NCBI GenBank assembly: GCA_965221695.1
Contig: OZ244905.1
Coordinates: 3,456,001-3,520,000 of the forward strand
Direction: 5' to 3'
Source: Gammaproteobacteria bacterium
Lineage (GTDB): Bacteria > Pseudomonadota > Gammaproteobacteria > Eutrophobiales > Eutrophobiaceae
Length of the DNA stretch: 64,000 bases
This document shows, piece by piece, positions 12,979 through 39,753 of this stretch (position 1 is its first letter; each line of letters begins with the position of its first letter). The translations under genes and the position numbers were made by a program. The notes beneath the pieces were generated by a model. It had not been told where the DNA came from, did no database searches, and saw only the letters and a program-made list of their open reading frames with translations.

Positions 12979-12988
12979 ATTCTTTTAA

Positions 12989-13015
12989 GGAACCTCTGTT
13001 TTAGCCAGAGACATC
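12989..13015 (+). mobile_element. Degenerate minimal MITE copy
   Basis: TTAA followed by GGAACCTCTGTTTTAGCCAGAGACATC. Confidence 0.6.
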
Positions 13016-13084
13016 ACCAACGGTGTGATTCCGATGGGCGCGGTACTGGCAGACCGCAATTTTTATCACGGTCCCGAGTATGCT
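13013..13084 (+). pseudogene. Relic of an omega-amino acid (beta-alanine)--pyruvate aminotransferase
   Basis: Translates as ITNGVIPMGAVLADRNFYHGPEYA, resembling the class III aminotransferase segment after the PLP lysine (AKG-ITNG-x-IPMGAV...GPE). Confidence 0.7.
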
Positions 13085-15042
13085 CAGCTCATATCCAGGA
13101 CCTGGCTGGCCGCGCGCTCGCCTTCTTCCGCAGCGGTTGTCCAGAGTTGGGCGCCGGTCAATTCGGAATGGCCAAAGGCAATGCGTCCGAAAGGTTCGCG
13201 GATCATGTCGCTGGCGGAGAGTTCGCCGTGTTTGCCGTGGTAAAATCCGGGAGGCGATACCACGTAAGCGTGCCCCCAGCGGTTCGAGACGATGCCGGCA
13301 ATATCGCGTTTGGCATCGAAGCCGTATGCCGAAAACATCTTATTGAACTGCTCCCGCACGCCCCGTTCCACGTCTGCATAAGACAGGGCGAACAACTGCA
13401 TGCGGGCAGTGGTTGCCTGCTGTGGCATAGGGATGCCGGGGTTGCAAAATGAGTTGTACATGGTCAGCGCCGTGGGTTTGCCCGGGTCCAGTGGCATGGG
13501 TTCCTTCCCGTCGATTAGCATCTGCCGGCGCAGGCTGAAGAACCATCCGTAGCCTTCAAACCAGCGCACGGCGCTCGCGCCCAGCTTCTCCAGGAATTTC
13601 CAATTGCGCAGGGCCACGTTGATGGTGTGCATGGGCGCATGATGGAAGGTCGCCATCGCGTCCTGATAATCTGGCGGCAAGTCCTTGCAGACCAGCCGGT
13701 TCACCCACTGACCGCAGGCCATCACGACGTTTTTCGCCTTTACCTTGTGTAATTTGCCATCCTTATAATAGATGACGGACACGCTGCGCGCGGAGTTCGG
13801 TGAGCCGTCATGCATCACGCCGGCCACGGTGGCGGACAGGCGCATGCGCGTCGGCTGACCGGCGCGATCCAGAGCGTCCCAGTTGATATCATTAAACAGA
13901 ACCGCGGACAGGGAATTGTCCCCCTTGATGGAAGCGGGGATCATAGCCTTGACGAAGTGGCGGGCGATACCGGTGTTGCCGCCGGGGAAACTGGCCAGGT
14001 AAACGTATTCGGATGGGTCCTCCAGGCCGGCATAACGTTTGTAGGAAATCACGCCCGGCTGGACAAACTCGTAGGCGGAGTACGCGGAGATAACGTCCGC
14101 CCCCAGTCCGCAGCCCATGGCCGCGGTCTGCGGATTCAGATAAGGCATCACGTCTTTGGAGACGCCGACATGACGGGTTAGAAACTCTTCGTAAGTCATG
14201 CTGTCCAGCCAATGGTGCCAGTCGTCTTTCCGGTAGGGCACATCCTTGTAAACCTCCATGTGCAACAGGTCGCGCTTCAGACTGTCAGCTATCGGCGCAT
14301 CCTTGAAACCGCTGTTCCAGGGGTTCAGCGTCATGCCGTGGTTTTCATAATAATGCGCCAGGTCTGCATGCTCCCAGGCAATGTGCATCGGGCTGTAAAC
14401 GTCCTTGGGGATAATCAGGTCTTTTTCGAGGTTTTTTGCGGCCTGGTATTTGAATTCCTGCGGCAGTCCCAGCTTGTCCCAATAGCGATGATGCCAGCCA
14501 ATGGGCTTGGTGCGGTTTGGCGGAAAGACGCTGCCGTTCGATCCCTGGGGCGCCCATAGCCGGATGCCGTCTACTTCAAATTCATTCTGTTTCGCCTCAC
14601 CGCCGAAGATGGCATGGTTGTCCATGATCAATGTGGAGCCGTTCGGTCTGTCCTCGTGGTAGCGATATGCGGCTGCGAGTCCGGAAAAACCGCCGCCGAC
14701 CACGACCAGATCATAGACTTCGCCTGAATCAATAGCGTCCTTGAAGGCTTTTTCAAATGTGCCGTTGCGGATGCCATGGCCGTCATTAATCACTTCATGG
14801 GTGTTGCCGTTGGCGTTGCTGTAATCGCCGATACCACCGGGTCCGGTCCAGTCAGGACCCATGCCGGTCAAGGGGACAGCGAGCGTCTGCGCGTTGGCGT
14901 TGCGCATCAATCCCGGCGCGTTGGCATACAGCAATCCGGCCCCGGCGCCGATCAAGCTGCTACCGATAAAATCCCGGCGGGTAATCTCAGCGTCCAAGCC
15001 CAGCAGTCTGTCTGCGCGGGCGTTGTTTTGCGGTTTAGTCAT
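13084..15042 (-). CDS. spdH: Tat-exported FAD oxidoreductase, spermidine dehydrogenase-like
   Basis: ITRRDFIG twin-arginine signal; VVGGGFSG; DNHAIFGGEAKQNEF; FPGGNTGIARH; NRWGHAY; PFGRIAF. Exact substrate uncertain. Confidence 0.7.
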   Translation of the reverse strand: MTKPQNNARADRLLGLDAEITRRDFIGSSLIGAGAGLLYANAPGLMRNANAQTLAVPLTGMGPDWTGPGGIGDYSNANGNTHEVINDGHGIRNGTFEKAFKDAIDSGEVYDLVVVGGGFSGLAAAYRYHEDRPNGSTLIMDNHAIFGGEAKQNEFEVDGIRLWAPQGSNGSVFPPNRTKPIGWHHRYWDKLGLPQEFKYQAAKNLEKDLIIPKDVYSPMHIAWEHADLAHYYENHGMTLNPWNSGFKDAPIADSLKRDLLHMEVYKDVPYRKDDWHHWLDSMTYEEFLTRHVGVSKDVMPYLNPQTAAMGCGLGADVISAYSAYEFVQPGVISYKRYAGLEDPSEYVYLASFPGGNTGIARHFVKAMIPASIKGDNSLSAVLFNDINWDALDRAGQPTRMRLSATVAGVMHDGSPNSARSVSVIYYKDGKLHKVKAKNVVMACGQWVNRLVCKDLPPDYQDAMATFHHAPMHTINVALRNWKFLEKLGASAVRWFEGYGWFFSLRRQMLIDGKEPMPLDPGKPTALTMYNSFCNPGIPMPQQATTARMQLFALSYADVERGVREQFNKMFSAYGFDAKRDIAGIVSNRWGHAYVVSPPGFYHGKHGELSASDMIREPFGRIAFGHSELTGAQLWTTAAEEGERAASQVLDMS

Positions 15043-15072
15043 ATGCTTCCCCCTGGCATTAAGTTTGTCTTG

Positions 15073-15255
15073 CTAATGTAGCATTATTTTGTGAAACGCG
15101 GAAGAAGACAAATGGTACTGTTGCTTGAAACGCTTGTTGAAATGCGCGCTGTCCTGGAAACCCCAAAAAAAGCAACATTGGAGAATTCTCTGTGTTAAGT
15201 GTCGCGCGCGCAAATCCAAGCGTTGGCGAATGATATACTGCCTGATCTGCGCCAC
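15073..15255 (-). pseudogene. C-terminal fragment of an AraC/XylS regulator
   Basis: QYI..QRL...CFFWGFQDSAHFNKRFKQQY matches the second AraC HTH; there is no N-terminal domain. Confidence 0.7.
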
Positions 15256-15259
15256 CTAG

Positions 15260-15308
15260 CATTCCCGTGCAACCCCCCGTTTTCACGGGGGCAGGCTACG
15301 GAATCCAG
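15260..15308 (+). repeat. Composite REP-like element
   Basis: CATTCCCGTGCAA[CCCCCCGTTTTCACGGGGGCAGGCT]ACGGAATCCAG: a REP unit with a second hairpin nested inside. Confidence 0.6.
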
Positions 15309-15366
15309 TTGAACAATGGGTCGCCCTCCGGGCGTCAGTTGTATACGGATAGCATGAATTAAAGAC

Positions 15367-16677
15367 ATGACAAACACTATCATCCGCTTTCTGGAATGCC
15401 GTTTCAGGCTCACTGAATACGGCGTCAAGGTTCGCACAGAGGCGCTGGCGGGTTGCGCCACCTTCGCCACTATGGCCTACATCATCTTTGTCAACCCGCA
15501 GATGATGGCTGCTGCCGGCATGGATCAAGGCGCAGCTTTCGTCGCTACCTGTCTGGCCTCGGCGCTGGCCTGCTTGATCATGGGTCTGTATGCAAACTGG
15601 CCGGTGGGACTGGCGCCGGGAATGGGCATGAACGCGTTCTTTACCTACACGGTGGTCGGCAGCCTGGGCTACAGTTGGCAGATAGGACTGGGCGCAGTGT
15701 TCCTGTCCGGAGTCCTGTTCGTCATCATCAGCGTTACTCGCTTGCGTGCGTGGTTGCTGAACAGCATTCCGATGAATCTGCGCCTGGCCATGGGTTGCGG
15801 AGTGGGATTATTTATCGGGTTTATTGGTCTGCAGAACGGTGGCATCGTAGTATCCAGTCCCGCGACCCTCCTTAGCTTGGGCGACCTGACCCGGCCTGAA
15901 CCCATGCTTGCCGCGGCCGGCTTCCTGCTCATCGCCGGGCTGAGTGTGCGCGCTGTCCCCGGCGCCATATTGTTGGGTATTCTGGCGGTGACGGTCATGG
16001 GTCTGCTTGTTGGATTGGCGAGCTACCAAGGGCTGGTTTCCGCTCCGCCGGATCTGGCCGCGACCTTTCTGCAACTGGACATCGCCGGCGCCCTGGAGTT
16101 GGGCCTGATCAGCGTGATAGCCGCATTCCTGTTTGTCAACCTGTTCGACACCACCGGCACACTGATGGGCATCGCCCAACAGGCCGGCCTGGTGGACGGA
16201 CAAGGCAGGGCGCGGAACCTGGAACGGGCGCTGAAGGCAGACAGTTGCTCCAGCGTGGTCGGCGCATGTCTTGGATGCACACCAGTGACCAGCTACGTGG
16301 AAAGCGTGGCGGGCATCGCCGCAGGCGGCCGCACCGGGTTGAGCGCAGTGACGGTCGGCATCCTGTTCCTGCTGGCTATATTCCTGGCGCCGCTGGCGCG
16401 TATGGTCCCGGAATTTGCCACCAGTGGCGCCTTGATCTTCGTGGCCCTGTTAATGTTAGGCGGCATGCGCTACCTGGCCTGGGACGATGCCACCGAGCTG
16501 CTCCCGGCGCTGCTTACCATTGTCGCGATACCGCTGACATTCTCCATTGCCGATGGCATTGCCGCGGGTTTCATGACTTATGTTTGTGTTAAGTTGGCCA
16601 GCGGCAAACGCCAGGAAATTACTTCGGGAGTATGGTTGTTGGCTCTGATCTTCCTGGCCCGGTTTATCTTCCTGTAG
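15367..16677 (+). CDS. NCS2/AzgA-type nucleobase permease
   Basis: TMAYIIFVNP, APGMGMNAFF, LFDTTGTL, TSYVES, GGRTGL, PLTFSIADGI. Confidence 0.92.
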   Translation: MTNTIIRFLECRFRLTEYGVKVRTEALAGCATFATMAYIIFVNPQMMAAAGMDQGAAFVATCLASALACLIMGLYANWPVGLAPGMGMNAFFTYTVVGSLGYSWQIGLGAVFLSGVLFVIISVTRLRAWLLNSIPMNLRLAMGCGVGLFIGFIGLQNGGIVVSSPATLLSLGDLTRPEPMLAAAGFLLIAGLSVRAVPGAILLGILAVTVMGLLVGLASYQGLVSAPPDLAATFLQLDIAGALELGLISVIAAFLFVNLFDTTGTLMGIAQQAGLVDGQGRARNLERALKADSCSSVVGACLGCTPVTSYVESVAGIAAGGRTGLSAVTVGILFLLAIFLAPLARMVPEFATSGALIFVALLMLGGMRYLAWDDATELLPALLTIVAIPLTFSIADGIAAGFMTYVCVKLASGKRQEITSGVWLLALIFLARFIFL

Positions 16678-26057: not shown

Positions 26058-26122
26058 GGTTTTGTCGCTCTGGTTACGATGGTAGTATAACCCAGGCCAT
26101 CCCACAAAATATGCGCAATTCA

Positions 26123-27436
26123 ATGCTTCCCCAGGAAATCATCAGGAAAAAAAGAAATGGCATAGCGCTGGCCGCGGATGAAATACAGTATTTTGTAGAC
26201 GGTCTTTGCGATGGTTCGATTGCGGCGGAGCAGGTTTCTGCGCTGGCGATGGCTGTTTATTTTCGCTCCATGGACAGCGCGGAGACGGCTGAGTTGACCC
26301 GGGCCATGGCGCGTTCGGGGAGCGTGATAGACTGGGCTGACGAGCGGATTGAGGGGTTGCTCGTCGATAAACACTCGACCGGTGGCGTGGGAGACAAGGT
26401 GAGCCTGATATTGGCGCCGCTGGTCGCCGCTTGCGGCGCTTACGTGCCGATGATTTCAGGGCGCGGGCTGGGACATACCGGCGGCACGCTGGACAAGCTG
26501 GACAGTATCCCCGGCTATAACACCGCGCCGGAACTGGCAGAGTTCAAACGGGTAGTCAGGTCAGCCGGTTGTGCGATCATCGGCCAGACGCCGGAACTGG
26601 CGCCGGCGGACCGGCGTTTATATGCGATCCGGGACGTGACTGCGACCATCGAGTCCGTGCCGCTGATCAGCGCCTCCATCCTGTCCAAGAAGATTGCCGC
26701 CGGCCTCGACGGGCTGGTCATGGATATCAAGACCGGTTCGGGGGCGTTCATGGCAACCGAGGCTGAGGCGCTGGAACTCGCTAGTTCCCTGGTGAATTCG
26801 GCCACCGAAGCAGGCTTGCCGATCAAGGCGGTAATCACGGATATGTCGGAAGTACTGGGACACAACGCCGGCAATGCGCTGGAGGTACGCGAGACGATTG
26901 ATTTTCTGACCGGGACGCGGCGCGACGACCGCCTGCATGAAGTCGTCTTCACCCTGGCGGCGGAGATGCTGGCGCTGGCCGGTCTGGAGCAGGACCGGCA
27001 GGCAGCGCATTCATTGTTGCAAACAGCGCTGGACCGGGGCCGGGCGACCGAGGTTTTCGCCGCCATGGTAAGCGCTCTCGGCGGGCCTGCGGACTTCATT
27101 GAGCGGCTCGATGACTACCTGCCGCCGGCGCCGGTTGTGAGGCCGGTTTTCCCCGACGGCGAAGGGTATGTTACCGCCATTGATGTGCGCCAGGTAGGTA
27201 ATGCCGTGGTCGCGCTGGGCGGCGGCAGACGGCGGGTTGAAGACAGCATCGACCACAGCGTCGGCCTGACTGAGATCGCGGGCCTCGGCGCCCGTCTCGG
27301 CCCCGATACCCCGGTAGCAATTGTTCATGCCCGGGATGAAGCCGGGGCGCACGCGGCTGCCAAGTCGCTGCGCGGGGCGTTTGTGGCTGGCGCTGAGCCA
27401 CCGCCGGCAAGACCGGTGGTGCAGAAATTAATTTGA
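26123..27436 (+). CDS. deoA: Thymidine phosphorylase
   Basis: MLPQEIIRKKR, DKHSTGGVGDK, ISGRGLGHTGGTLDKL, SILSKK, LGGGR. Confidence 0.95.
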   Translation: MLPQEIIRKKRNGIALAADEIQYFVDGLCDGSIAAEQVSALAMAVYFRSMDSAETAELTRAMARSGSVIDWADERIEGLLVDKHSTGGVGDKVSLILAPLVAACGAYVPMISGRGLGHTGGTLDKLDSIPGYNTAPELAEFKRVVRSAGCAIIGQTPELAPADRRLYAIRDVTATIESVPLISASILSKKIAAGLDGLVMDIKTGSGAFMATEAEALELASSLVNSATEAGLPIKAVITDMSEVLGHNAGNALEVRETIDFLTGTRRDDRLHEVVFTLAAEMLALAGLEQDRQAAHSLLQTALDRGRATEVFAAMVSALGGPADFIERLDDYLPPAPVVRPVFPDGEGYVTAIDVRQVGNAVVALGGGRRRVEDSIDHSVGLTEIAGLGARLGPDTPVAIVHARDEAGAHAAAKSLRGAFVAGAEPPPARPVVQKLI

Positions 27437-27467: not shown

Positions 27468-29702
27468 TCAGAAATTCAGGCGCGCCTTCACGCCGATTTC
27501 ACGCCGGTCGGTATTCCAGAGAGCGAAGCCGATAAAGAACGGGAAGTAATTTTTTACCCTGGCGTATTCCTCGTCGGCAAGGTTGATGCCGTAAATGGCC
27601 AGCCTCCAGCGGTCATTTGGGGATCGATACTGAATTTGCGCATTGAGTAAGCCATAACCGTCCTGTCTTTCCTCCGGGTGATTTGATATCTGGCCATAAT
27701 AACCGCTACGATAAGAGTAATCGGCGCGAAATTGCAGGTCTCCACCACCCAGTGGAATATCGAGTTGCGGAGACACGCTCCATGTGTGTTTGCTGACGTA
27801 AGGCAACCTGTTCCCATCACTGAAATTGGCGTTCAGGGACGGGTCGATATCAACATCGCTGATCTCGGCATCCGTATACGCGTAACTTGCGTCTATCCTG
27901 AACATGGTTGACAGCAACGCCGCGAGTTCCACTTCAACGCCGCTGATATCGGCTTCGGCAGCATTCAAGGTGCGCGTAGTAAAGGCATCCTGGATCTGGT
28001 TAACCTGCGCCTGGTAGTCCTGGTAATCACTGGTATAAAGAGCCAGGTTGAAACGCAGGCGATTGTCCAACAACTCCGATTTCAGACCCAATTCATAGAC
28101 GTTTACGTATTCCGGATCATAGATATTGACGGAATTCGGGTTTCCGGGGCGTGCGTTAAATCCACCGCTACGAAAACCGCGCGAATACATTGCGTACAGC
28201 ATGATATCTTCGTTGACTTGCAAATCAACGCTGGCGGTGCCGGATACCGCGTCCCATGATTCGCTCAATTCGGTCGGTGGGATCCGGTAAATCAGTTCGC
28301 CGCCATCCAGCATCGCTTGCTGCGCCGGATCGCCCGCCCGCAACCTCTGGTAATACAGGTCGTAGTCTTTTTCCTCGTCTGTATAGCGAATGCCCCCGGT
28401 TACGCTGAGCATTTCATTGAAATCCAGGGTGCCTTGCGCGAACAACGCATAACTGTCCGTTTCAACCGCGCTACGGCGCTGGTCAAGACTGAAAAACACG
28501 TCATCATCCTGGAGGTTCTCGCCTTCTTCCGTGAAGTAGTATAGCCCGGCGATCCACCTGTAGGTGTCACCTTCGCCCAGAAATTGAATTTCCTGTGAAA
28601 ACTGGTCAGCGTCTCCTGTTTCGTGGTAGTAGACCAGTGTAATCGGCGCGCCGTCAAACTCAAGGTTGCCCTCATATTCCATCTCCCGGTAGGCGCTAAT
28701 CGATTTTACGGTAATGTTCTCGCTGACATTCCACTCCCATGTAGCCGCAATGCCATATGATTCTTGCTTGGTCCCCAAGTCATCCAACGAATAGTTCTTG
28801 TAACGGCTGATTTCCGTTCCCGCCGGGCAGGCGCTGTATATTCCCGGCGAAGTTTCTTCATAGCAGGGCGCTGTTCCTATCCCGGAATTGTAAAGGGTGT
28901 GCGGCACAGCGCCCTGGTTGGCGTCAAATACGTCGGCAACCAGGGAAAACTTGACAGACTCACCCTCCCAGTAGAGTTGCGCGCGGGCGCTCAGGCTGTC
29001 TTCATCACCGAGGTCGTCTCCCGTAAACACCTGTTCACCCACTCCGTCACGGTTTTTATATTGAATACTGGCCTTGATCGCCAGGTTATCACTGGCCGCG
29101 ACTTCCCCGGACACTTCCACGTTAATTCGTTCATCCTCGCCGGCGGTCACGGCGATATGACCTCCGTTTTCAAATTTTGGCTTTCTGCTGACCACATTAA
29201 CCGCGCCGCCTATAGTATTCTTGCCGAACAACGTGCCCTGAGGCCCTCGCAACACCTCTACCCGTTCGAGGTCGAGGATATCCAGGGCCGCGCCCATGTT
29301 ACGACCAACGTAAACTCCGTCAACGTACAGCCCGACTCCCGGGTCGGTCGTGATCATGTGGTCGGATTGCCCGATACCGCGTACAAATATGGCGCCGGCT
29401 TCTGCGCTGCCCATGCCGTAAGACGTGAACGACATACCGGGCGTGTACCTGCCTATATCCCGGAGATCCAGCATGTTTGCTTCCTCCATCGTCTCCTGGG
29501 AAAAAGTGGTGATGGAAATAGGCGTATCCTGCTGCGTTTCTTCACGTTTGCGCGCGGTTACTACGATCTCTTCGAGCTGCGCGGTTTGTGACCTGGCCTG
29601 AGCCGGCAATAGCGGGGGGGCGAGCGCTAAGGTAAAGAGGATAAATGTAAACGTAAACCGGTATATAAGGCGCAGGTTATTCAACTTGCCAAGCATGTTC
29701 AT
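27468..29702 (-). CDS. TonB-dependent receptor
   Basis: RBS GGAGGAG before ATG 29702; signal peptide; LEEIVVTARKREE TonB box; ERVEVLRGPQGTLFGKN plug; terminal Phe. Confidence 0.93.
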   Translation of the reverse strand: MNMLGKLNNLRLIYRFTFTFILFTLALAPPLLPAQARSQTAQLEEIVVTARKREETQQDTPISITTFSQETMEEANMLDLRDIGRYTPGMSFTSYGMGSAEAGAIFVRGIGQSDHMITTDPGVGLYVDGVYVGRNMGAALDILDLERVEVLRGPQGTLFGKNTIGGAVNVVSRKPKFENGGHIAVTAGEDERINVEVSGEVAASDNLAIKASIQYKNRDGVGEQVFTGDDLGDEDSLSARAQLYWEGESVKFSLVADVFDANQGAVPHTLYNSGIGTAPCYEETSPGIYSACPAGTEISRYKNYSLDDLGTKQESYGIAATWEWNVSENITVKSISAYREMEYEGNLEFDGAPITLVYYHETGDADQFSQEIQFLGEGDTYRWIAGLYYFTEEGENLQDDDVFFSLDQRRSAVETDSYALFAQGTLDFNEMLSVTGGIRYTDEEKDYDLYYQRLRAGDPAQQAMLDGGELIYRIPPTELSESWDAVSGTASVDLQVNEDIMLYAMYSRGFRSGGFNARPGNPNSVNIYDPEYVNVYELGLKSELLDNRLRFNLALYTSDYQDYQAQVNQIQDAFTTRTLNAAEADISGVEVELAALLSTMFRIDASYAYTDAEISDVDIDPSLNANFSDGNRLPYVSKHTWSVSPQLDIPLGGGDLQFRADYSYRSGYYGQISNHPEERQDGYGLLNAQIQYRSPNDRWRLAIYGINLADEEYARVKNYFPFFIGFALWNTDRREIGVKARLNF

Positions 29703-29788
29703 ACTATCTCCTCCCACATCTCGGTAAAATTTCACTTACCATTGCCGCAGTCTGCGCATCGCATCATTGCGGCATCTACCGGCTGGAT

Positions 29789-29804
29789 TGTATAATATTA
29801 TACA
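29789..29804. promoter_or_regulatory. Perfect 16-bp palindrome upstream of the TonB receptor (candidate operator)
   Basis: TGTATAATATTATACA. Confidence 0.55.
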
Positions 29805-29827
29805 CTATTGTCAAACTATTTTGTCAA
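29799..29827. promoter_or_regulatory. Tandem TTGTCAA half-sites (candidate TetR operator)
   Basis: TATACAC-TA-TTGTCAA and CAAACTA-TT-TTGTCAA; same right half as the 32441 palindrome. Confidence 0.5.
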
Positions 29828-29899
29828 TTATTTTACCTGAGAACATGTTTCGCAAGATAGGTTTCGGCGCCGTAAACCATAGGTACGATACTTCGCATT

Positions 29900-31522
29900 C
29901 TATTCATCAAGGATAAGTGCGCTGGCTTTTTCTGCGATCATTATGGCCGGCGCATTTGTGTTGCCACGGGTAATTACAGGCATAATTGATGCATCCGCGA
30001 CCCGCAAGCCTTGTACCCCATGCACCCGCAATTGTGCGTCCACTACCGCCTGATCATCAATGCCCATCTTGCAGGACCCGACCGGGTGCAAGGTAGTCAT
30101 AGCGGCATCTCTCAACCACACCCTCAATTCTTCATCTGTCCTGTAGCGCGGACCCGGCGCCAGTTCTCTCCCCCTGATCCCGTGGAATGCCTTGCGCGCA
30201 ATAACCTCACGCATCAGTTGCACTCCGGCAATCGTGTTCTCGATATCTTGCTGAGCTTCCAGATAATTGGCGTAAATCAGAGGGGCGTCTGCGGCATCAT
30301 TGGAACGCAAAGCGATCCGTCCCCGGCTGCACGGGGTCACCGGGCCAATTCTGATCGTCAGACCATGACAGGCAGGGACATCCTCGCTACGGAAAAATGG
30401 CAATGACCAGTGCAGGTTCGCGCTGTCTTCGGTGGCAGGCATGAAATGGGTCTGGATATCCGGCGCTTCCAGGTCGGCGGAAGACTTGATGAATGACCCT
30501 GCTTCGTAGGGAAACGTCGTGACAAAGCCGGATCCAAACAGGGTGGCTTGAATTATCCCAAGAGTAACCTTGTCGATACGCAGGTCATTTCGCAACGACA
30601 GCGGCTGGTTTAATTCGTATACCAGGCAACAATCCACATGGTCTTGCATGTTTTTTCCCACACCTGGCAGGTGATGGATTACCGGAACGCCGTGTTGCTC
30701 CAATTCACCGGCGTCACCGATTCCCGACAACATCAGCAATTGCGGAGAATTAATCACACCGGCGGCCAGTACGATCTCTTTTTTTGCCCTGGCGAATACC
30801 ACCTTATTACCCAACCGGTATTCAACCCCGTTGGCGCGCTCCCCCGAAAATACGATGCGTTGTGTCAATGCGCCGGTTTCTACTTCCAGGTTCGCGCGCC
30901 GCGCTGCCGGCCGGAGGAACGCGGTTGCCGCGCTACAGCGTCTGCCACGTCTGATCGTGAAATCATAACGGCCAAATCCCTCCTGAGTTTCCCCGTTGAA
31001 ATCATCGGTATAGGAATAACCGGCCTGTTGGCCTGCCTCGATAAATGTGTCGAACAAAGCATTATCACCGCGAGCGCGACATACCGTCAGTTCCCCGTCG
31101 CGGCCATGGTAACTGTCATGCCTATCAATATGTCCCTCCGAGCGCTTGAAAAAGGGTAGTACGCTGTCATAAGACCAGCCCGGCAACCCCAGCCGCTCCC
31201 AACCGTCGTAATCCGCGGGATTGCCGCGGACATAAATCATGCCGTTTATCGTTGAACTGCCGCCTAATACTTTACCCCGCGGCCAGTATATTTTACGCCC
31301 GTTGAGGTGGGGTTCTTCTTCGGTGTGGTAGCGCCAGTTATAGATGCCCGAATGCATCAGCTTGCCCATCAGCATAGGCAAGCGAAACAGGTAATTGGTA
31401 TCCCGCCCACCCGCTTCAAGCAACAGCGTCCGGTGTTTCGGGTTTGCCGAAAGTCGGTTTGCCAGCACGCAACCTGCGGAACCGGCGCCGACGACTATAT
31501 AATCAAACTCTCTGGACATCAC
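29900..31522 (-). CDS. GMC oxidoreductase (choline dehydrogenase-like, substrate unknown)
   Basis: GAGSAGC, RGKVLGGSSTING, SPQLLMLSGIG, LHPVGSC His and GNTNA Asn, LRVADAS. Confidence 0.92.
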   Translation of the reverse strand: MMSREFDYIVVGAGSAGCVLANRLSANPKHRTLLLEAGGRDTNYLFRLPMLMGKLMHSGIYNWRYHTEEEPHLNGRKIYWPRGKVLGGSSTINGMIYVRGNPADYDGWERLGLPGWSYDSVLPFFKRSEGHIDRHDSYHGRDGELTVCRARGDNALFDTFIEAGQQAGYSYTDDFNGETQEGFGRYDFTIRRGRRCSAATAFLRPAARRANLEVETGALTQRIVFSGERANGVEYRLGNKVVFARAKKEIVLAAGVINSPQLLMLSGIGDAGELEQHGVPVIHHLPGVGKNMQDHVDCCLVYELNQPLSLRNDLRIDKVTLGIIQATLFGSGFVTTFPYEAGSFIKSSADLEAPDIQTHFMPATEDSANLHWSLPFFRSEDVPACHGLTIRIGPVTPCSRGRIALRSNDAADAPLIYANYLEAQQDIENTIAGVQLMREVIARKAFHGIRGRELAPGPRYRTDEELRVWLRDAAMTTLHPVGSCKMGIDDQAVVDAQLRVHGVQGLRVADASIMPVITRGNTNAPAIMIAEKASALILDE

Positions 31523-31531
31523 TGTTTTTTC

Positions 31532-32392
31532 TTACCATTCGATTGGTTGTGCGTTCATTGCGGCCAGCTTGTCATTACAAAGCTGAAACGGGTTAGGGTG
31601 ACGTAAAAATGCATCCCCCTCTGCCGGGTGGGGTAAAGCCACAATTCCCGGGTGATTGTGGAGTTCGGCCTCTGACACAATACCGCCGGTTAGCGCGACC
31701 TCTCGCGCCGCGTCGCCGAACAGGAGCACAACGACCGGCTGCGACGGTCGATTGGAAAAGTAGGTGAGCAAGCGCGTGATTAACGGCCGCCAAAGTGGCA
31801 GGTGGCCACGCAGTTGATGGGGGTCGCCTGATACAGAAAACCGGGTCAGGGTGAGACTCGCGTTCAGCATCAGGACTCCCTGTTTCACCCAGCCCTGTAC
31901 CAGCCGATCGGGCGCCGGAAAGTCAGAGTCCGGACCACCAATGGCGCGCAGCACATCCGGCCAGCGCTCGGTCCCTTCGGCGTAACGCGGTTCCCCCGTG
32001 CGAAAAGCATACACGAACTGCATCAGGCTTCTGACACTACATGAAAACATTTTCTCCAATTCGTTCCAGTAACGGCAGTCGCCCGCTTCAAATGCCCGGC
32101 CAGTGGAGAAACTGATGCTGGGATAAGGGTCTTGTCCCACCACCACACATCGCACCCGGTCCGGCGACAATCCGTCAAACGCCCGGAACATATGCGCGTT
32201 GGGCGGTTCTCCGGGTAATACAAATCCCTTGCGTGTCGGAAAAATCGGTTCCCAGGAATGTAATTCCAGCCGCTCATCCACCTGGTCAAAGGCGAGTTCA
32301 GCGCCATCCAGCGCCTGTTGCCATTCAGGTGAAAGATCGGCGCGCCAGTCGCGCAACAACTCGCACAAAGCCACCTTGAGAGGTATCGCCAT
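31532..32392 (-). CDS. Atypical uracil-DNA glycosylase family-1-like protein
   Basis: VVVGQDPYP, TGRAF, WVKQGVLMLNASLT, LLFG, LPHP, NPF..CN.KL and terminal PIEW; HPSPLS replaced by HPAEGD. Confidence 0.8.
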   Translation of the reverse strand: MAIPLKVALCELLRDWRADLSPEWQQALDGAELAFDQVDERLELHSWEPIFPTRKGFVLPGEPPNAHMFRAFDGLSPDRVRCVVVGQDPYPSISFSTGRAFEAGDCRYWNELEKMFSCSVRSLMQFVYAFRTGEPRYAEGTERWPDVLRAIGGPDSDFPAPDRLVQGWVKQGVLMLNASLTLTRFSVSGDPHQLRGHLPLWRPLITRLLTYFSNRPSQPVVVLLFGDAAREVALTGGIVSEAELHNHPGIVALPHPAEGDAFLRHPNPFQLCNDKLAAMNAQPIEW

Positions 32393-32440
32393 CGTTAATC
32401 TCCATTTGCAAAGCCAGAACGCTGTTAACTATATGTAGAC

Positions 32441-32456
32441 TTGACATCTTTGTCAA
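32441..32456. promoter_or_regulatory. RutR-like operator palindrome upstream of the UDG-GMC genes
   Basis: TTGACATCTTTGTCAA (TTGACA-N4-TGTCAA); compare the E. coli RutR box TTGACCAnnTGGTCAA. Confidence 0.65.
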
Positions 32457-32527
32457 AATATAGTTTTGCGCTTAGAAGGTTCGCTATCAGTCGGTCCGGA
32501 ACCGGTGTGGCGATATGACGCTGGAAT

Positions 32528-33145
32528 TTACTCGAATCCGCAACCCTTGAGGATGATGTGGGTAATGGTATCCACACCCAGGGCGAAGTGCACGCGCGTC
32601 AGGCGCTTTACCCCGAGTATGTTTTTAATCTGTTGCTCGAAATCTGCGTAATACTGCGTTGATCCCCAGATAAGAAAAAAGAAATGGCGCGGGTCCAAGT
32701 GGTCCATCCTGCCCTCGTTCATCCAACGTTCCAGCACTTCACATTTTTCATCCGTTAGTTTCCTGATTTCCTCGTTTTCCTCCTCTGTCAATATGCCTGA
32801 ACCCCTGATCACCTCATCGGCAAAAATCTTTGAAGCGGCCGGGTGCTTCATGGAATATTCTATCTTGGCGCGAATATATTTCCTGATGACCTCTTTGGGT
32901 TCTCCATCCGCCGTAATCTGTCCTAACGCATTAATCCATTCAGTGCGCAAGTCATTGATGATGCGGCGGTAGATGTGATTTCTTGAAGGGAAATAGTAGT
33001 ACAGGTTTGGCCGGGGAATATCGACAGCCTTGGCAATATCCTCCATTCGGGTGCCCTGAAACCCATGGGTCACCACGAGTTTTGCTGTTGCGCGCAAGAT
33101 TCTAGCTTCCTTGTATTGGCGTAGTTTCGATGATTTTGGTTTCAT
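32528..33145 (-). CDS. TetR family regulator, RutR-like
   Basis: HTH with RPNLYYYF; SKIFADEVIRG, DPRHFFFLIWGSTQYYADF. Confidence 0.88.
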   Translation of the reverse strand: MKPKSSKLRQYKEARILRATAKLVVTHGFQGTRMEDIAKAVDIPRPNLYYYFPSRNHIYRRIINDLRTEWINALGQITADGEPKEVIRKYIRAKIEYSMKHPAASKIFADEVIRGSGILTEEENEEIRKLTDEKCEVLERWMNEGRMDHLDPRHFFFLIWGSTQYYADFEQQIKNILGVKRLTRVHFALGVDTITHIILKGCGFE

Positions 33146-33423: not shown

Positions 33424-33744
33424 ATGGTTATTGATCATCGCACCTATACGTTCCGTCCCGGCACATTGAAACAGTGGCTGGAGAAGTACGAAACTGAAGG
33501 CTTGCCGATTCAAAAAAAACACTTGGGGGAATTTCTGGGTTTGTTTACCACAGAAGTGGGCAACCTGCACCAGGTCGTTTTTATGTGGGGATATGAAAGT
33601 ATGGGAGACCGGGAACGACGCCGCGCCGAAATGGAGACCGATCCGGAATGGCAAAATTTTATCGAAGAAGTCTGGTCCCTGGGAATCATCCAGGCGCAGG
33701 AAATAAAATTTCTCAAACCAGCTTCATTTTCTCCCATCAAGTAA
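33424..33744 (+). CDS. NIPSNAP family protein
   Basis: HRTYTFRPG, G.F.TEVG.LHQVVFMW.Y, RERRR, DPEW, FSP. Confidence 0.9.
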   Translation: MVIDHRTYTFRPGTLKQWLEKYETEGLPIQKKHLGEFLGLFTTEVGNLHQVVFMWGYESMGDRERRRAEMETDPEWQNFIEEVWSLGIIQAQEIKFLKPASFSPIK

Positions 33745-33969: not shown

Positions 33970-34980
33970 GTGGATTTCGGCATTTGTTTTAAAGGCAACG
34001 TCAGCCCTGAAAGAGCGCGTTACCTGGTTCGCCAGGCGGAAACGGGCGGATTTTCCTATTGCTGGTTTTATGACTCACATATTCTGTGGCGCGATTGTTA
34101 TGCTGCTATCGCCTTGTGTATGGAGCATACGAAAACCATGCGTTTCGGCCCATGCGTCACTAATCCGGACGTCAGAGATTGGTCCGTCGCAGCCAGCATG
34201 TTTGCCGGCCTGGCTCTTCAAAGTAACGGGCGTTTCGATATTGGTGTGGGGCGAGGCGACAGTTCCCTGCGGGTAATGGGTAAGAAACCCGCCAGCCTTG
34301 CGCGCGTTGCCGAATTCACGGAAAAAGTCAAAGCCATGGTCCGGGGTGAACAGGTGACTTATGCGGCATGCGCGGAACCTGTCCGGTTCACCTGGTCCGC
34401 AGGTCATGATCTGCCCGTATGGATCGCCGCCTACGGCCCCAAGGCGCTGGCCACAGCAGGCAGACACGGCGACGGCGTCATCCTGCAGATTGCAGAGCCG
34501 ACCCTGGTCGCCTGGTTTGTCGAGCAGTGCCGTCGTGCCGGTAAGGCTGCCGGACGGGACATGTCGGATTTCAGGGTAATGTCTGCAGCGCCGGCGTATT
34601 TTGGCTCATCCGACGAATGTATTGCAGCGACGAGATGGTTCCCGGCAATGGTCGGCAACCACATCGCCGACATCGTTGAGAAATATGGCGCCGATACGAC
34701 AGAAGTACCGAAAAGTCTCACTGCCTATATTGAGAAACGGCGCGGTTATGACTATAAAAAACACGGTCGGAGCGACAACCCATACCTGGATTTTATTACC
34801 CCTGAGATTGTCACAAGTTTCAGTGTGTTAGGCAGTCCGGCCGACCATATCGCCAAATTGAAAGCGCTGGAAAAGACGGGGGTAACGCAATTCAATATCT
34901 ACCTGGACAACGGCAAAGAAGAGCAAATCATTGCCAACTACGCAGAAGCCGTAATTCCGGCGTTTATCAGCCAGGGTTGA
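33970..34980 (+). CDS. LLM-class putative F420-dependent oxidoreductase (TIGR03842/CPS_4043-like)
   Basis: WFYDSHILW, GPCVTNP..RDW, GVGRGDS, WIAAYGPKAL, RWFPAMVGNH, GYDY..H, GVTQFNIYL. Confidence 0.85.
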   Translation: MDFGICFKGNVSPERARYLVRQAETGGFSYCWFYDSHILWRDCYAAIALCMEHTKTMRFGPCVTNPDVRDWSVAASMFAGLALQSNGRFDIGVGRGDSSLRVMGKKPASLARVAEFTEKVKAMVRGEQVTYAACAEPVRFTWSAGHDLPVWIAAYGPKALATAGRHGDGVILQIAEPTLVAWFVEQCRRAGKAAGRDMSDFRVMSAAPAYFGSSDECIAATRWFPAMVGNHIADIVEKYGADTTEVPKSLTAYIEKRRGYDYKKHGRSDNPYLDFITPEIVTSFSVLGSPADHIAKLKALEKTGVTQFNIYLDNGKEEQIIANYAEAVIPAFISQG

Positions 34981-35016: not shown

Positions 35017-36558
35017 TTATCGAGTACTCGGAAAAGAAAACTGTGTTTCCTCGACAAGATCTGTTGGCCAGCGTTGGCTGATAGTCTTGCGGCGCGTATA
35101 AAACCGGACTGAATCAGGGCCGTAGGCGCTTAGGTCGCCGAACAGGGAGCGTTTCCAGCCGCCGAAGCTGTGACTGGCTACCGGCACCGGCAGCGGTACG
35201 TTAACGCCGACCATGCCAACCTTGATATTGTCGGTGAAGCGTCGGGCGCTGCCACCGTCACGGGTAAATATACATGTGCCGTTGCCGTATTCGTGTTCAT
35301 CGATGAGTCGCATTGCTTCCTGCAGGCTTGACACACGCAACACGCATAACACGGGACCGAAGATTTCCTCGCGGTAAATGCGCATGGCCGGCGTGACCCG
35401 GTCAAACAGGCAGCCGCCCAGGAAGAAGCCGTCCGGCTGGCGCTGAACAGTCATTTCACGCCCGTCCACGACCAACTGCGCGCCTTCGGCCACGCCCGCG
35501 TCAACATAGCTGCGTACTTTTTCATAGTGCGGTTTACTGATCAGAGGCCCCATCTCATTATCGCTTTCTGTGCCGGGGCCTACTTTCAGAGCAGAGACCT
35601 TTGAGGCCAGCTTGTTGACCACTTCATCGGCAACGGCGTCGCCCACACACAATACTGCTGAGATAGCCATGCAACGTTCGCCACAGGAACCATAGGCGGC
35701 GCCCATCAGCGCATTCACGGCATTGTCCAAATCCGCATCCGGCATGATCACGGCATGATTTTTCGCTCCCCCCAGCGCTTGCACCCGTTTGCCGTTTGCT
35801 GTGCCGGTCCGGTAAACGTATTCAGCGATGGGCGTAGAGCCGACAAAACTGACCGCTTGTATCCTGGGGTCTGCCAGTAGGATATCCACGGCTTCTTTGT
35901 CCCCGTGCACCACGTTGAAGACACCGTCCGGCGCCCCGGCTTCCTGGAGCAGTTCGGCGATACGGGTCGGCGCGCTGGGGTCTTTTTCCGATGGTTTCAA
36001 TACAAAGGTATTGCCGCAAATAAGCGCCATGGGATACATCCATAAAGGCACCATGGCGGGGAAATTGAAAGGGGTGATCCCGGCGACCACCCCCAGCGGT
36101 TGAAATTCCGACCAACTGTCAATGCCGGGCCCAACATCTTTGCTATGTTCTCCTTTTAACAGTTCAGGCGCGCCGCATGCGTATTCAACCACCTCTATGC
36201 CCCGGGTCAACTCGCCGCGGGCGTCATCCAGGACTTTGCCATGTTCTTCAGTCAACAGTCCGACAATTTCATCAGTATGCTGTTCCAACAGGTTCTTGAA
36301 ACGAAACATGATGCGCGCGCGTTTCACTGGAGGAGTCCGGCGCCAGCCGGGATACGCGGCAGCCGCAGCGGCAATGGCTTTTTCCACCGTTGCTTTGCCG
36401 GCCAACGCCACTTGGCGTGTAATTTGACCAGTCGCGGGATTATAGACCGGCAAGGCGCGCTCATCAGTACCGCTGACTAACCTGCCGTTGATGTAGTGGC
36501 ACACAAGGTCGTCGCGGTCATGCCGGCTTTGAAGGGCTTGTACTGAACTCATTGTCAT
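35017..36558 (-). CDS. mmsA: CoA-acylating (methyl)malonate-semialdehyde dehydrogenase
   Basis: ITPFNFPAMVP, KPSEKDP, GGAKNH, GERCMA, EEIFGP, FGGWK.SLFGD. Confidence 0.93.
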   Translation of the reverse strand: MTMSSVQALQSRHDRDDLVCHYINGRLVSGTDERALPVYNPATGQITRQVALAGKATVEKAIAAAAAAYPGWRRTPPVKRARIMFRFKNLLEQHTDEIVGLLTEEHGKVLDDARGELTRGIEVVEYACGAPELLKGEHSKDVGPGIDSWSEFQPLGVVAGITPFNFPAMVPLWMYPMALICGNTFVLKPSEKDPSAPTRIAELLQEAGAPDGVFNVVHGDKEAVDILLADPRIQAVSFVGSTPIAEYVYRTGTANGKRVQALGGAKNHAVIMPDADLDNAVNALMGAAYGSCGERCMAISAVLCVGDAVADEVVNKLASKVSALKVGPGTESDNEMGPLISKPHYEKVRSYVDAGVAEGAQLVVDGREMTVQRQPDGFFLGGCLFDRVTPAMRIYREEIFGPVLCVLRVSSLQEAMRLIDEHEYGNGTCIFTRDGGSARRFTDNIKVGMVGVNVPLPVPVASHSFGGWKRSLFGDLSAYGPDSVRFYTRRKTISQRWPTDLVEETQFSFPSTR

Positions 36559-36568
36559 TCTCTTTACT

Positions 36569-38918
<2,350 letters not shown>

Positions 38919-39018: not shown

Positions 39019-39043
39019 GGGAACCGATTGAGTCAGAGCTTTC
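39019..39043 (+). mobile_element. Degenerate minimal MITE copy
   Basis: GGGAACCGATTGAGTCAGAGCTTTC. Confidence 0.55.
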
Positions 39044-39084
39044 ATAACATCATCAACCATAAAATCATCACAAGAACATCCATT

Positions 39085-39753
39085 ATGCTGAATGAGAACC
39101 CGCCTCTACTTAATGCTCTTGAAAATGAACAGAAGGCGCGCAACAGGAAGGACAGCAGGATACAGGCCCGCAACAGGGAGAAGATCCTGAGCGCAGCCAC
39201 TGAAGTCTTTTCCCTATATGGCTATCGGGGCGCTACCATTGACCAGATTGCCGATAAGGCCGAGATGTCGAAACCGAACCTGCTGTATTATTTTGCTTCC
39301 AAGGAAGACCTGTATTTCACAGTATTGCGAAATATCCTGGAAATCTGGTTGCAGCCCTTGAAGGAACTGGATGAAAACGAATCGTCGGAACACGAGATCG
39401 GCGCCTATATTGACCAGAAGATAGAATTTTCCAGGTTGTACCCGATGGCATCCCGTGTGTTTGCAAATGAGATTGCCGCCGGCGCGCCGATCCTGAAACC
39501 GGTATTGGATACTTACTTACGCGATATCGTGAAGAAAAAAGCCCGCGTCATAAGAAAATGGGTTAAACGAGGGGAGATGGCAGATGTGGACCCATACCAT
39601 TTAATTATGATGATCTGGGCTGTCACCCAACATTACTCCGACTTTGCCGTACAAGTTGACGCGCTGCTGGGCAAGTCACTGGATGAGCCCCGGTTTTATA
39701 ATCAGACCAGAAAAAATATCAAAAAGATCATTATGACGGGCATATTGAAATAG
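39085..39753 (+). CDS. rutR: RutR/PydR-type TetR pyrimidine regulator
   Basis: MSKPNLLYYF.SKE.LY, W..PL, SRVFANEI, DPYHL..MIWAVTQHYSDF; divergent from the hydA operon. Confidence 0.8.
   Translation: MLNENPPLLNALENEQKARNRKDSRIQARNREKILSAATEVFSLYGYRGATIDQIADKAEMSKPNLLYYFASKEDLYFTVLRNILEIWLQPLKELDENESSEHEIGAYIDQKIEFSRLYPMASRVFANEIAAGAPILKPVLDTYLRDIVKKKARVIRKWVKRGEMADVDPYHLIMMIWAVTQHYSDFAVQVDALLGKSLDEPRFYNQTRKNIKKIIMTGILK

Follow-up and report, generated by a model that had tools for sequence, protein, structure and literature searches.

A conserved cassette of uracil-DNA glycosylase-like, GMC oxidoreductase and NIPSNAP genes with a RutR-type operator and a predicted role in pyrimidine salvage

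Introduction

Why does a gene for a protein of the uracil-DNA glycosylase (UDG) fold stand in what looks like a metabolic operon? The question arises at a locus within a stretch of 64,000 nucleotides from a Gammaproteobacteria bacterium (NCBI GenBank assembly GCA_965221695.1, contig OZ244905.1, positions 3,456,001 to 3,520,000), here called the window, where a gene resembling that of family-1 UDG (UNG) is followed by one for a GMC-family FAD oxidoreductase and flanked by one for a TetR-type repressor. All characterised members of the UDG superfamily act on nucleic acids, to our knowledge. Comparison of the locus with its relatives in other genomes places the UNG-like gene in a conserved cassette with the GMC gene and a NIPSNAP gene. 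This cassette quite probably serves to break down or salvage a pyrimidine-related compound taken up by the cell, and not to repair DNA.

A conserved three-gene cassette

Four minus-strand open reading frames (ORFs) occupy window positions 27468-33145, encoding a TonB-dependent receptor (27468-29735), the GMC oxidoreductase (29900-31522, 540 amino acids), the UNG-like protein (31532-32392, 286 amino acids) and the TetR repressor (32528-33145). ORFs and domain matches agree with the initial annotation, an earlier reading of the letters alone, on the identity, position and strand of all four. The UNG-like gene is the first of the core cassette; its stop codon is separated from the listed GMC start, a GTG whose next codon is ATG, by the 9 bp that the annotation had reported. 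The receptor gene follows 164 bp downstream of the GMC gene. A NIPSNAP gene (dimeric alpha-beta-barrel protein, 106 amino acids) lies on the plus strand at 33424-33744, divergent from the rest.

To examine synteny, we took the best 80 of 209 relatives of the UNG-like gene with flanks of up to 8 kb and searched these loci with the window's proteins. The link with GMC, first noticed at this single locus, proved almost obligatory: a GMC ortholog (59-98% identity) occurs in 77 of 80 loci, and in 75 it is the next gene downstream on the same strand, with an estimated gap of 6 bp in the median (range 0-70) that is no longer than 30 bp in 74 of these 75. NIPSNAP is present in 71 loci, no more than 60 bp after GMC in 64 of 66 same-strand cases, and a RutR-like TetR gene in 70. 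The three loci without GMC comprise one at a contig end (L054), one in which NIPSNAP directly follows the UNG-like gene (L049) and one without partners (L046).

The TonB receptor, which the initial annotation had counted as part of a unit with the UNG-like and GMC genes, is found in only 21 of 80 loci, and that unit had missed NIPSNAP. An LLM oxidoreductase gene occurs in 18 loci, methylmalonate-semialdehyde dehydrogenase in 13, dihydropyrimidinase in 10, CN-hydrolase and deoA in 7 each, and cytochrome P450 in 6. The deoA and dihydropyrimidinase neighbours singled out in the annotation are both present in the window, but at these frequencies the link with them did not hold as a general feature.

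Co-inheritance was followed across the genus in 23 genomes, one of them that of the window. A GMC ortholog at 63% identity or more occurs in exactly the 11 genomes with a UNG-like gene, the others holding only paralogs at 48% or less; NIPSNAP is found in 10 of these 11 and in none of 30 other genomes searched, the missing case being a 3.2-kb contig. These genomes are kin and not independent, and no statistic is attached to the joint presence. The UNG-like, GMC and NIPSNAP genes are gained or lost jointly and constitute the core unit, with the TonB receptor a lineage-specific uptake part.

A diverged relative of family-1 UNG

The UNG-like protein passes the Pfam UDG model PF03167 marginally (26.7 bits, cut-off 24.3), and many of its homologs have no precomputed Pfam match. 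On the NCBIfam ung equivalogs it scores far below the cut-offs (63.1 against 185.75 bits for TIGR00628; 66 against 162 for NF003592). A profile of 15 homologs matched solved family-1 UNGs at E-values down to 5e-17. The closest solved structure is 5x3g, the UNG of Nitratifractor salsuginis, both by single sequence (E-value 1.6e-08) and by fold (Foldseek template modelling (TM) scores of 0.56/0.64 at 23-24% identity), with the UNGs of Escherichia coli, Kaposi's sarcoma-associated herpesvirus (KSHV), Deinococcus and human next by fold. A search of the ESM Atlas returned only the family's own clusters, labelled 'uracil-DNA glycosylase'.

Residues were compared in an alignment of 15 UNG-like members with Ung of E. 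coli K-12, to which they are 27-32% identical. As the initial annotation had noted, the GQDPY, GRAF, LMLN and HP motifs are retained. G86-Q87-D88-P89-Y90 (motif A, aligned with E. coli G62-Y66) is invariant in all 15, as are F101, N177 and H255 (E. coli F77, N123 and H187). Invariance thus extends to the water-activating Asp and the C5-gating Tyr (D64 and Y66 in E. coli numbering), and further invariant columns correspond to E. coli S88 (the PPS-loop Ser), P188 and the C-terminal Trp. Even distant relatives at 32-44% identity have the complete catalytic set, including members without a GMC neighbour.

Divergence is concentrated elsewhere. The loops of UNG pinch DNA phosphates and a Leu intercalates (background that PMC5449639 restates in part). 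Of motif B (HPSPLS) the family keeps only His-Pro, followed in the window by AEGD, the replacement already recognised in the annotation, and in the family by Ala and small or acidic residues. The Gly-Ser loop has become Gly-Asp or Gly-Glu in most members (Gly-Asp in the window). Insertions relative to E. coli Ung, also noted earlier, measure about 7, about 32, about 6 and at least 8 residues, and the isoelectric point is acidic in all 15 members (4.7-5.9). The reported change of PPSL to SCSV is real in the window protein but confined to it and its closest relatives; the family consensus is SPSV, its Ser is invariant and the loop is largely kept. Because it lacks motif B and falls below the equivalog scores, the UNG-like protein lies outside family-1 UNG in the strict sense, and its sequence marks it clearly as a diverged derivative of that family.

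The AlphaFold2 model of the UNG-like protein is confident (mean predicted local distance difference test (pLDDT) 84.9) except at residues 183-196 (window ~31805-31846, minus strand), the sole stretch with pLDDT below 50. It coincides with a nearly invariant GDPHQxRGHLPLW sequence, a 6-residue extension of a UNG loop, which, from the model, may be a mobile lid or a partner-binding loop. Prediction of a complex between the GMC and UNG-like proteins gave a score of 0.00 and the verdict 'no answer'.

Other UDGs and distribution

The UNG-like protein is not the only UDG of its genome, a point on which the initial annotation's view of it partly turned. The window genome also encodes a family-4 UDG (228 bits, cut-off 125), a deoxyinosine glycosylase and a third UDG-superfamily protein; a whole-genome search found no canonical ung, with sub-threshold matches only at the UNG-like gene itself. 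The third protein (218 amino acids; ORF 1168-1824 of L003, G000:C1:2717341-2720604) reaches 30.5 bits on the Pfam UDG model and has no NCBIfam match. Across the genus, a family-4 UDG is present in 22 of 23 genomes (the exception is 77% complete), the UNG-like gene in 11 and canonical ung in none; the UNG-like gene is therefore accessory and not a housekeeping repair enzyme. Two of five alphaproteobacterial carriers have a canonical ung alongside the cassette.

The family is rare. The 209 relatives came from a collection in which each of 185,579 species is represented by one genome. Of 400 genomes sampled from the phylum, a single one apart from that of the window has the gene; a 50%-identity library holds 133 representatives at E-values of 1e-30 or below. 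By record titles the carriers are cultured soil Alphaproteobacteria (Ensifer, Mesorhizobium, Rhizobium and Labrys) and uncultured Gammaproteobacteria, and public records name the family's proteins 'uracil-DNA glycosylase'.

Among distant members, P0152 and P0192 have some 240-260 additional N-terminal residues that match no Pfam family and may be a fused partner domain. Two further proteins, P0143 (a UNG-like N-terminus joined to a molybdopterin cofactor-binding domain) and P0127 (UNG-like with a GMC-domain tail), are probably chimeras of gene calling or assembly and were given no weight; P0143, though probably an artefact, hints at a molybdenum hydroxylase neighbour in some genome. A scan of metagenome contigs with the distant members was set aside, its degenerate GQDPY pattern having drawn mostly canonical UNG genes. 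Its sole true relative (L100, 44% identity) has a CBM96 protein and a protein kinase as neighbours, which are uninformative on function.

A RutR paralogue and its putative operator

Between the stop codon of the TetR gene and the start of the UNG-like gene, at 32441-32456, lies the sequence TTGACATCTTTGTCAA, a perfect palindrome (TTGACA-N4-TGTCAA) that we regard as the putative operator. It is situated 49-64 bp upstream of the UNG-like start codon and is the only perfect TTGAC-N6-GTCAA site in the window. With up to one mismatch the pattern occurs six times there against 1.93 expected, a count reached in 2 of 100 shuffles. Within 200 bp upstream of the UNG-like gene it is present at up to one mismatch in 53 of 80 loci and perfectly in 19; elsewhere in these loci the background amounts to 0.015 and 0.0036 sites per 200 bp, respectively. 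Of 18 scored loci with a TonB receptor gene, 11 also have a perfect copy in the 350 bp preceding that gene.

The repressor has TetR_N and TetR_C_3 domains and RutR as its best NCBIfam match, which, with the perfect site, bears out the RutR-like TetR and palindrome of the initial annotation. It nevertheless scores below the RutR cut-offs (166 against 368 bits on TIGR03613; 147 against 230 on PRK15008). A second RutR-like regulator, encoded at 39028-39753 (plus strand) beside the dihydropyrimidinase operon, is closer to RutR, at 252 bits on TIGR03613, still short of 368. The window thus holds two RutR-like regulators 6 kb apart, the distal one with the canonical LWLLW pocket and the cassette one with RWIIW. 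As listed, the second ORF begins about 40 residues before its RutR match, and its true start is probably downstream.

In RutR, two Trp residues (W77 and W167) sandwich uracil and position 78 abuts uracil C5, where L78 clashes with the C5-methyl of thymine, according to PMC4325133. We aligned 43 cassette regulators with E. coli RutR. They keep W77 and W167, and positions 74, 78 and 134 (L74, L78 and L134 in RutR) differ in 41 of 43. The window's cassette regulator has R74, W77, I78, I134 and W167. Gammaproteobacterial-type regulators have Arg-Ile-Ile or Arg-Val-Ile at 74/78/134 in 11 cases and His-Ile-Ile in one more; the 30 of the alphaproteobacterial type have Ile or Leu at 74, Asp (Asn once) at 78 and Met, Ile or Val at 134. 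The LWLLW pocket is confined to E. coli RutR, the window's second RutR and two regulators located 2.6 and 5.5 kb from a cassette. By their sequences, the cassette regulators are RutR paralogues that probably bind a uracil-like ring; because pocket positions 74, 78 and 134 differ from those of RutR, the effector is probably not plain uracil.

Partner enzymes, uptake and the fate of uracil

The GMC protein (PF00732 at 192 bits, PF05199 at 125 bits) belongs to a choline-dehydrogenase-like subfamily, passing the model NF002550 (663.9 against 605 bits) and failing the betA equivalog TIGR01810 (568.3 against 732.1 bits). Its best solved relative is 9lq0 (441 bits). The nearest characterised relatives act on primary alcohols (choline dehydrogenase, chloramphenicol oxidase and alcohol oxidases), and 5-(hydroxymethyl)furfural oxidase is among the matches. 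H479 and N521/N523 are invariant and are what we take to be the conserved His/Asn active-site pair of GMC enzymes. The NIPSNAP protein matches PF07978 at 108.9 bits (cut-off 22.3), and its model (pLDDT 90.8) has a ferredoxin-like beta-alpha-beta fold with a TM score of about 0.9 to NIPSNAP structures.

The genes for uptake vary with the lineage. In the window the TonB receptor carries Plug (PF07715, 71.3 bits) and barrel (PF00593, 157.7 bits) domains and passes no substrate-specific NCBIfam model; gammaproteobacterial-type loci have such a receptor, often with an MFS transporter (11 loci) and sometimes with NCS1 permeases (12 loci). The NCS1 permeases were rejected as cassette members and counted with the neighbouring reductive pathway, as they adjoin dihydropyrimidinase (for example in L033). 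The alphaproteobacterial-type operon continues with a BMP-family binding protein (47 of 80 loci), a double ABC ATPase (50 of 80) and two permeases. At its end stands a deaminase of the amidohydrolase superfamily in 16 loci and a RihA-like pyrimidine ribonucleoside hydrolase in 8, never both; in two genomes extended further the operon stops after the deaminase. The nearest solved relatives of the deaminase are methylthioadenosine/S-adenosylhomocysteine deaminase and triazine hydrolases, and those of the binding protein are 'basic membrane protein A', 'Lbp' and an atrazine periplasmic binding protein.

Five alphaproteobacterial carriers were checked for pyrimidine metabolism. All five encode dihydropyrimidinase and none RutA, which led us to reject the cassette as the uracil-degrading pathway itself: it would feed such a pathway and not replace it. 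Pyrimidine nucleoside phosphorylase is present in four of the five, deoC in five and PsuG in four. Plain deoxyuridine was downgraded as a substrate on the strength of the standard route formed by the first two, and ordinary nucleosides in general are unlikely, because the carriers mostly encode standard routes and a RihA-like hydrolase stands in 8 operons.

Reductive pyrimidine catabolism genes lie next to the cassette in the window (35017-38918, minus strand: methylmalonate-semialdehyde dehydrogenase, dihydropyrimidinase at 36569-38017 and CN-hydrolase) and are the likely uracil sink. The window's whole genome holds one DHO_dh-family (PF01180) gene, and no PreA-type dihydropyrimidine dehydrogenase was found in it. 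The first reductive step may be performed by another enzyme, for which the TIGR03842 LLM-class oxidoreductase at 33970-34980 (plus strand) is a candidate; its gene adjoins NIPSNAP, and its membership of the cassette is uncertain. The methylmalonate-semialdehyde dehydrogenase ORF (35017-36630, minus strand) shares 62 bp with the end of the dihydropyrimidinase ORF and matches its own family from residue 43, so that its real start is probably later than listed.

Other neighbours complete the setting. Thymidine phosphorylase (deoA, 26111-27436, plus strand) is convergent with the receptor gene, and a cytochrome P450 gene (39774-41003, plus strand) directly follows the second RutR gene. At 11734-16677, upstream of the region, lie genes for the alpha subunit of a Rieske ring-hydroxylating oxygenase (11734-12978), an NAD-binding protein resembling flavoproteins (13084-15042) and a permease of the xanthine/uracil family (15367-16677), which may form another N-heterocycle utilisation cluster.

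Proposed function and alternatives

From the observed anatomy, synteny, co-inheritance, operator and residue conservation we infer a substrate and a series of chemical steps. We tentatively propose, at a little under even odds, that the cassette is a three-gene feeder module, controlled by a RutR paralogue, for the conversion of a non-standard pyrimidine compound to uracil. An imported small molecule bearing uracil (or cytosine, after deamination) would be converted in the cytoplasm, having entered through the TonB receptor and MFS transporter in Gammaproteobacteria or through the BMP-type ABC transporter in Alphaproteobacteria, and the RutR paralogue would repress the module through the TTGAC-N6-GTCAA operator. 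In the UNG-like protein, with a substrate other than duplex DNA, Asp-activated water would attack the carbon on N1; Asn, His, Phe and Tyr would keep the uracil in place and stabilise it as the leaving group. The GMC enzyme would act on an alcohol group, either in the substrate itself or in the sugar-like moiety set free from it, and NIPSNAP would handle the resulting reactive carbonyl or hemiacetal as an isomerase or mutarotase. The released uracil would enter the reductive pathway, whose genes adjoin the cassette in the window and lie elsewhere in the genomes of alphaproteobacterial carriers.

Judging by the residues involved, duplex DNA is an unlikely substrate: the protein has lost the Leu wedge and three of the four serines that pinch phosphates, and acidic residues occupy two of those sites. 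DNA phosphates help to stabilise the cationic sugar in UNG; the acidic residues might, tentatively, replace them. Since the carriers already process common nucleosides, the substrate should be something that standard enzymes cannot handle; a nucleoside of uracil or cytosine that is unusual or modified is one candidate, and a 5-hydroxymethyl pyrimidine is another. We put the possibility that the UNG-like protein acts as an N-glycosidase on small molecules just below the midpoint. Chances are about equal either way that it is the first UDG-superfamily member with a non-nucleic-acid physiological substrate, performing the uracil-releasing step of a three-enzyme pathway whose compound is sensed by the RutR paralogue.

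Several observations weigh against this proposal. Because the N. salsuginis UNG (5x3g) is reportedly an active, Ugi-insensitive DNA glycosylase, and because BdiUng of Bradyrhizobium diazoefficiens offers a parallel, loss of motif B is compatible with a nucleic-acid substrate. BdiUng, a UDG without the Leu loop, excises uracil from single-stranded DNA, according to PMC5449639. The Ser aligned with E. coli S88, part of the phosphate-pinching PPS loop, is invariant in the UNG-like family. The standard nucleoside routes of the five alphaproteobacterial carriers and the RihA-like hydrolase in 8 operons make it less evident why an extra glycosidase would be needed. The primary alcohols favoured by the nearest characterised GMC enzymes do not favour oxidation at sugar C1, genes for further breakdown of a sugar product are absent from the operon, and the deoA and dihydropyrimidinase links are confined to a minority of loci (7 and 10 of 80).

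The same GMC affinities would suit a pathway at the level of the base, which we hold to be unlikely. In it, a C5-oxidisable base (5-hydroxymethyluracil, or 5-hydroxymethylcytosine after deamination) would become uracil: the GMC enzyme would oxidise the hydroxymethyl group to formyl or carboxyl, comparably to 5-hydroxymethylfurfural oxidase, itself among the matches, and the UNG-like pocket would hold the ring during removal of the C5 carbon by decarboxylation or deformylation, assisted by NIPSNAP. This would be a bacterial counterpart of fungal thymidine salvage, in which the route through thymine-7-hydroxylase and iso-orotate decarboxylase is known. The alphaproteobacterial operon is self-contained, with transporter, deaminase and three enzymes and without sugar-catabolic genes; the nearer solved relatives of its binding protein include the atrazine periplasmic binding protein, presumably a base binder, and those of its deaminase are triazine hydrolases and nucleoside or base deaminases. 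At the position that abuts uracil C5 in RutR, 30 of the 43 cassette regulators have Asp or Asn. Yet a glycosylase active site would have to break a C-C bond, and we know of no UDG-fold enzyme that does so, whereas the whole catalytic set, including the water-activating Asp and the C5-excluding Tyr, is invariant even in members without a GMC neighbour. The gammaproteobacterial regulators, moreover, have Ile or Val at 78 and Arg at 74 in place of Asp, and the RihA-like and nucleoside-deaminase-like partners point to nucleosides.

Slightly further down in our ranking, and likewise improbable, stands a true glycosylase of nucleic acids, with uracil in single-stranded DNA, oligonucleotides or duplex DNA as its target; it would either be co-expressed with a pyrimidine-catabolic operon to guard against misincorporation of uracil or an analogue during perturbation of the pool, or work on scavenged oligonucleotides. 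All the nearest relatives in sequence and in fold are DNA glycosylases, neither the catalytic residues nor the PPS-loop Ser vary, BdiUng provides the single-stranded precedent, and canonical ung is missing from the window's genus (0 of 23). A family-4 UDG is nonetheless present in 22 of those genomes, and the UNG-like gene occurs in only 11, always with GMC. Tight spacing to GMC (30 bp or less in 74 of 75) and a shared RutR-type operator are atypical for a repair gene, the serines of the Gly-Ser and Leu loops are replaced by mostly acidic or small residues in a family whose aligned members are all acidic, and that family is rare. Much less probable is oxidative cleavage of pseudouridine, a C-glycoside, for which oxidase-plus-cleaving-enzyme systems of C-glycoside 3-oxidase and deglycosidase are a precedent. 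The GMC enzyme would oxidise a ribose hydroxyl, and the ring would sit in the UNG-like pocket flipped about its N3-C6 axis, with C5 at the N1 site, the O4 enolate being stabilised during C-C cleavage and the Tyr gate facing an unsubstituted N1-H. Nucleoside-type uptake in Alphaproteobacteria and the absence of PsuG from all 41 genomes of the window's relatives, including the 11 cassette carriers there, would agree with this; but the GMC enzyme resembles choline dehydrogenase and not pyranose or glycoside oxidases, and nothing supports the idea specifically. It was downgraded because the distribution is not complementary, PsuG being absent from the 41 relatives with or without the cassette and present, in canonical form, in four of five alphaproteobacterial carriers. 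That the genes are unrelated and adjacent by chance or local peculiarity has almost no probability, being contradicted by a gene order common to 75-77 of 80 loci in Alpha- and Gammaproteobacteria, by joint presence and absence in the genus and by the shared operator.

Implications

If the proposed uracil-releasing salvage module is real, a base-flipping repair enzyme would have been stripped of its DNA-handling loops and reused in small-molecule metabolism, and an added route into pyrimidine catabolism would exist. Bacterial NIPSNAP proteins would gain a first biochemical context and RutR-type repressors a new class of effector. The label 'uracil-DNA glycosylase' on family members probably misleads counts of repair capacity. 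Because the cassette occurs in cultured soil Alphaproteobacteria, the question is open to direct genetics and enzymology.

Relation to known systems

With family-1 UNG, typified by E. coli Ung, the UNG-like protein shares the fold and motif order, GQDPY, the stacking Phe, the Asn of LLLN, the His of HP, the PPS-loop Ser and the C-terminal (P)I(D)W end. It differs in its 27-32% identity and sub-equivalog scores, the missing intercalating Leu, the Gly-Asp loop, four insertions and acidity, and its gene is accessory and operonic with GMC and NIPSNAP under a TetR operator. The 'unconventional family-1 UNG' of N. salsuginis (5x3g/5x3h) likewise has GQDPYP and extra secondary-structure elements between motif A and the LLLN strand; at 23-24% identity, however, the sequence alignment ends at residue 233, and the C-terminal third, including the motif-B region, is not shared. 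The N-terminal two-thirds of the UNG-like protein thus resemble the Nitratifractor enzyme and its C-terminal end resembles canonical UNG.

BdiUng (Blr0248), described as a 'new class of UDG', has GQDP(A), keeps the Asn and His and has no Leu loop; it is insensitive to Ugi, poor on duplex DNA and closer overall to the family-4 fold, with Ala for the motif-A Tyr and no stacking Phe, as PMC5449639 describes it. The UNG-like protein keeps both the Tyr and the Phe. BdiUng is not among its sequence or fold matches, and the sections of PMC5449639 consulted report no link to GMC or NIPSNAP.

The cassette regulator shares with RutR and PydR its TetR_N and TetR_C_3 domains, its best match, W77 and W167, and a 16-bp TTGAC...GTCAA palindrome of the RutR/PydR operator type, TTGACCAnnTGGTCAA. 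It departs from RutR in falling below the cut-offs and in its pocket, RWIIW in the window and I/L-W-D-x-W in Alphaproteobacteria as against LWLLW. The GMC enzyme has the full N- and C-terminal domains of BetA and bacterial GMC alcohol oxidoreductases and passes the choline-dehydrogenase subfamily model, but fails the betA equivalog, forms an orthologous group of its own found only with the UNG-like gene, and has no betaine genes in the cassette.

Bacterial NIPSNAP entries from structural genomics (Atu4242 and entries from Burkholderia xenovorans) are 34-40% identical to the cassette protein at TM scores of about 0.9 and carry no described function; the next fold neighbours, at 7-18% identity, are cofactor-free oxygenases, IsdG and the sugar-diketone isomerase LsrG. 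Full-text searches found no paper describing a UNG-like/GMC/NIPSNAP cassette, although mention in a supplement, such as a regulon or fitness table, is possible. Against these systems, the locus presents a known fold in an undescribed and tightly conserved context that appears metabolic.

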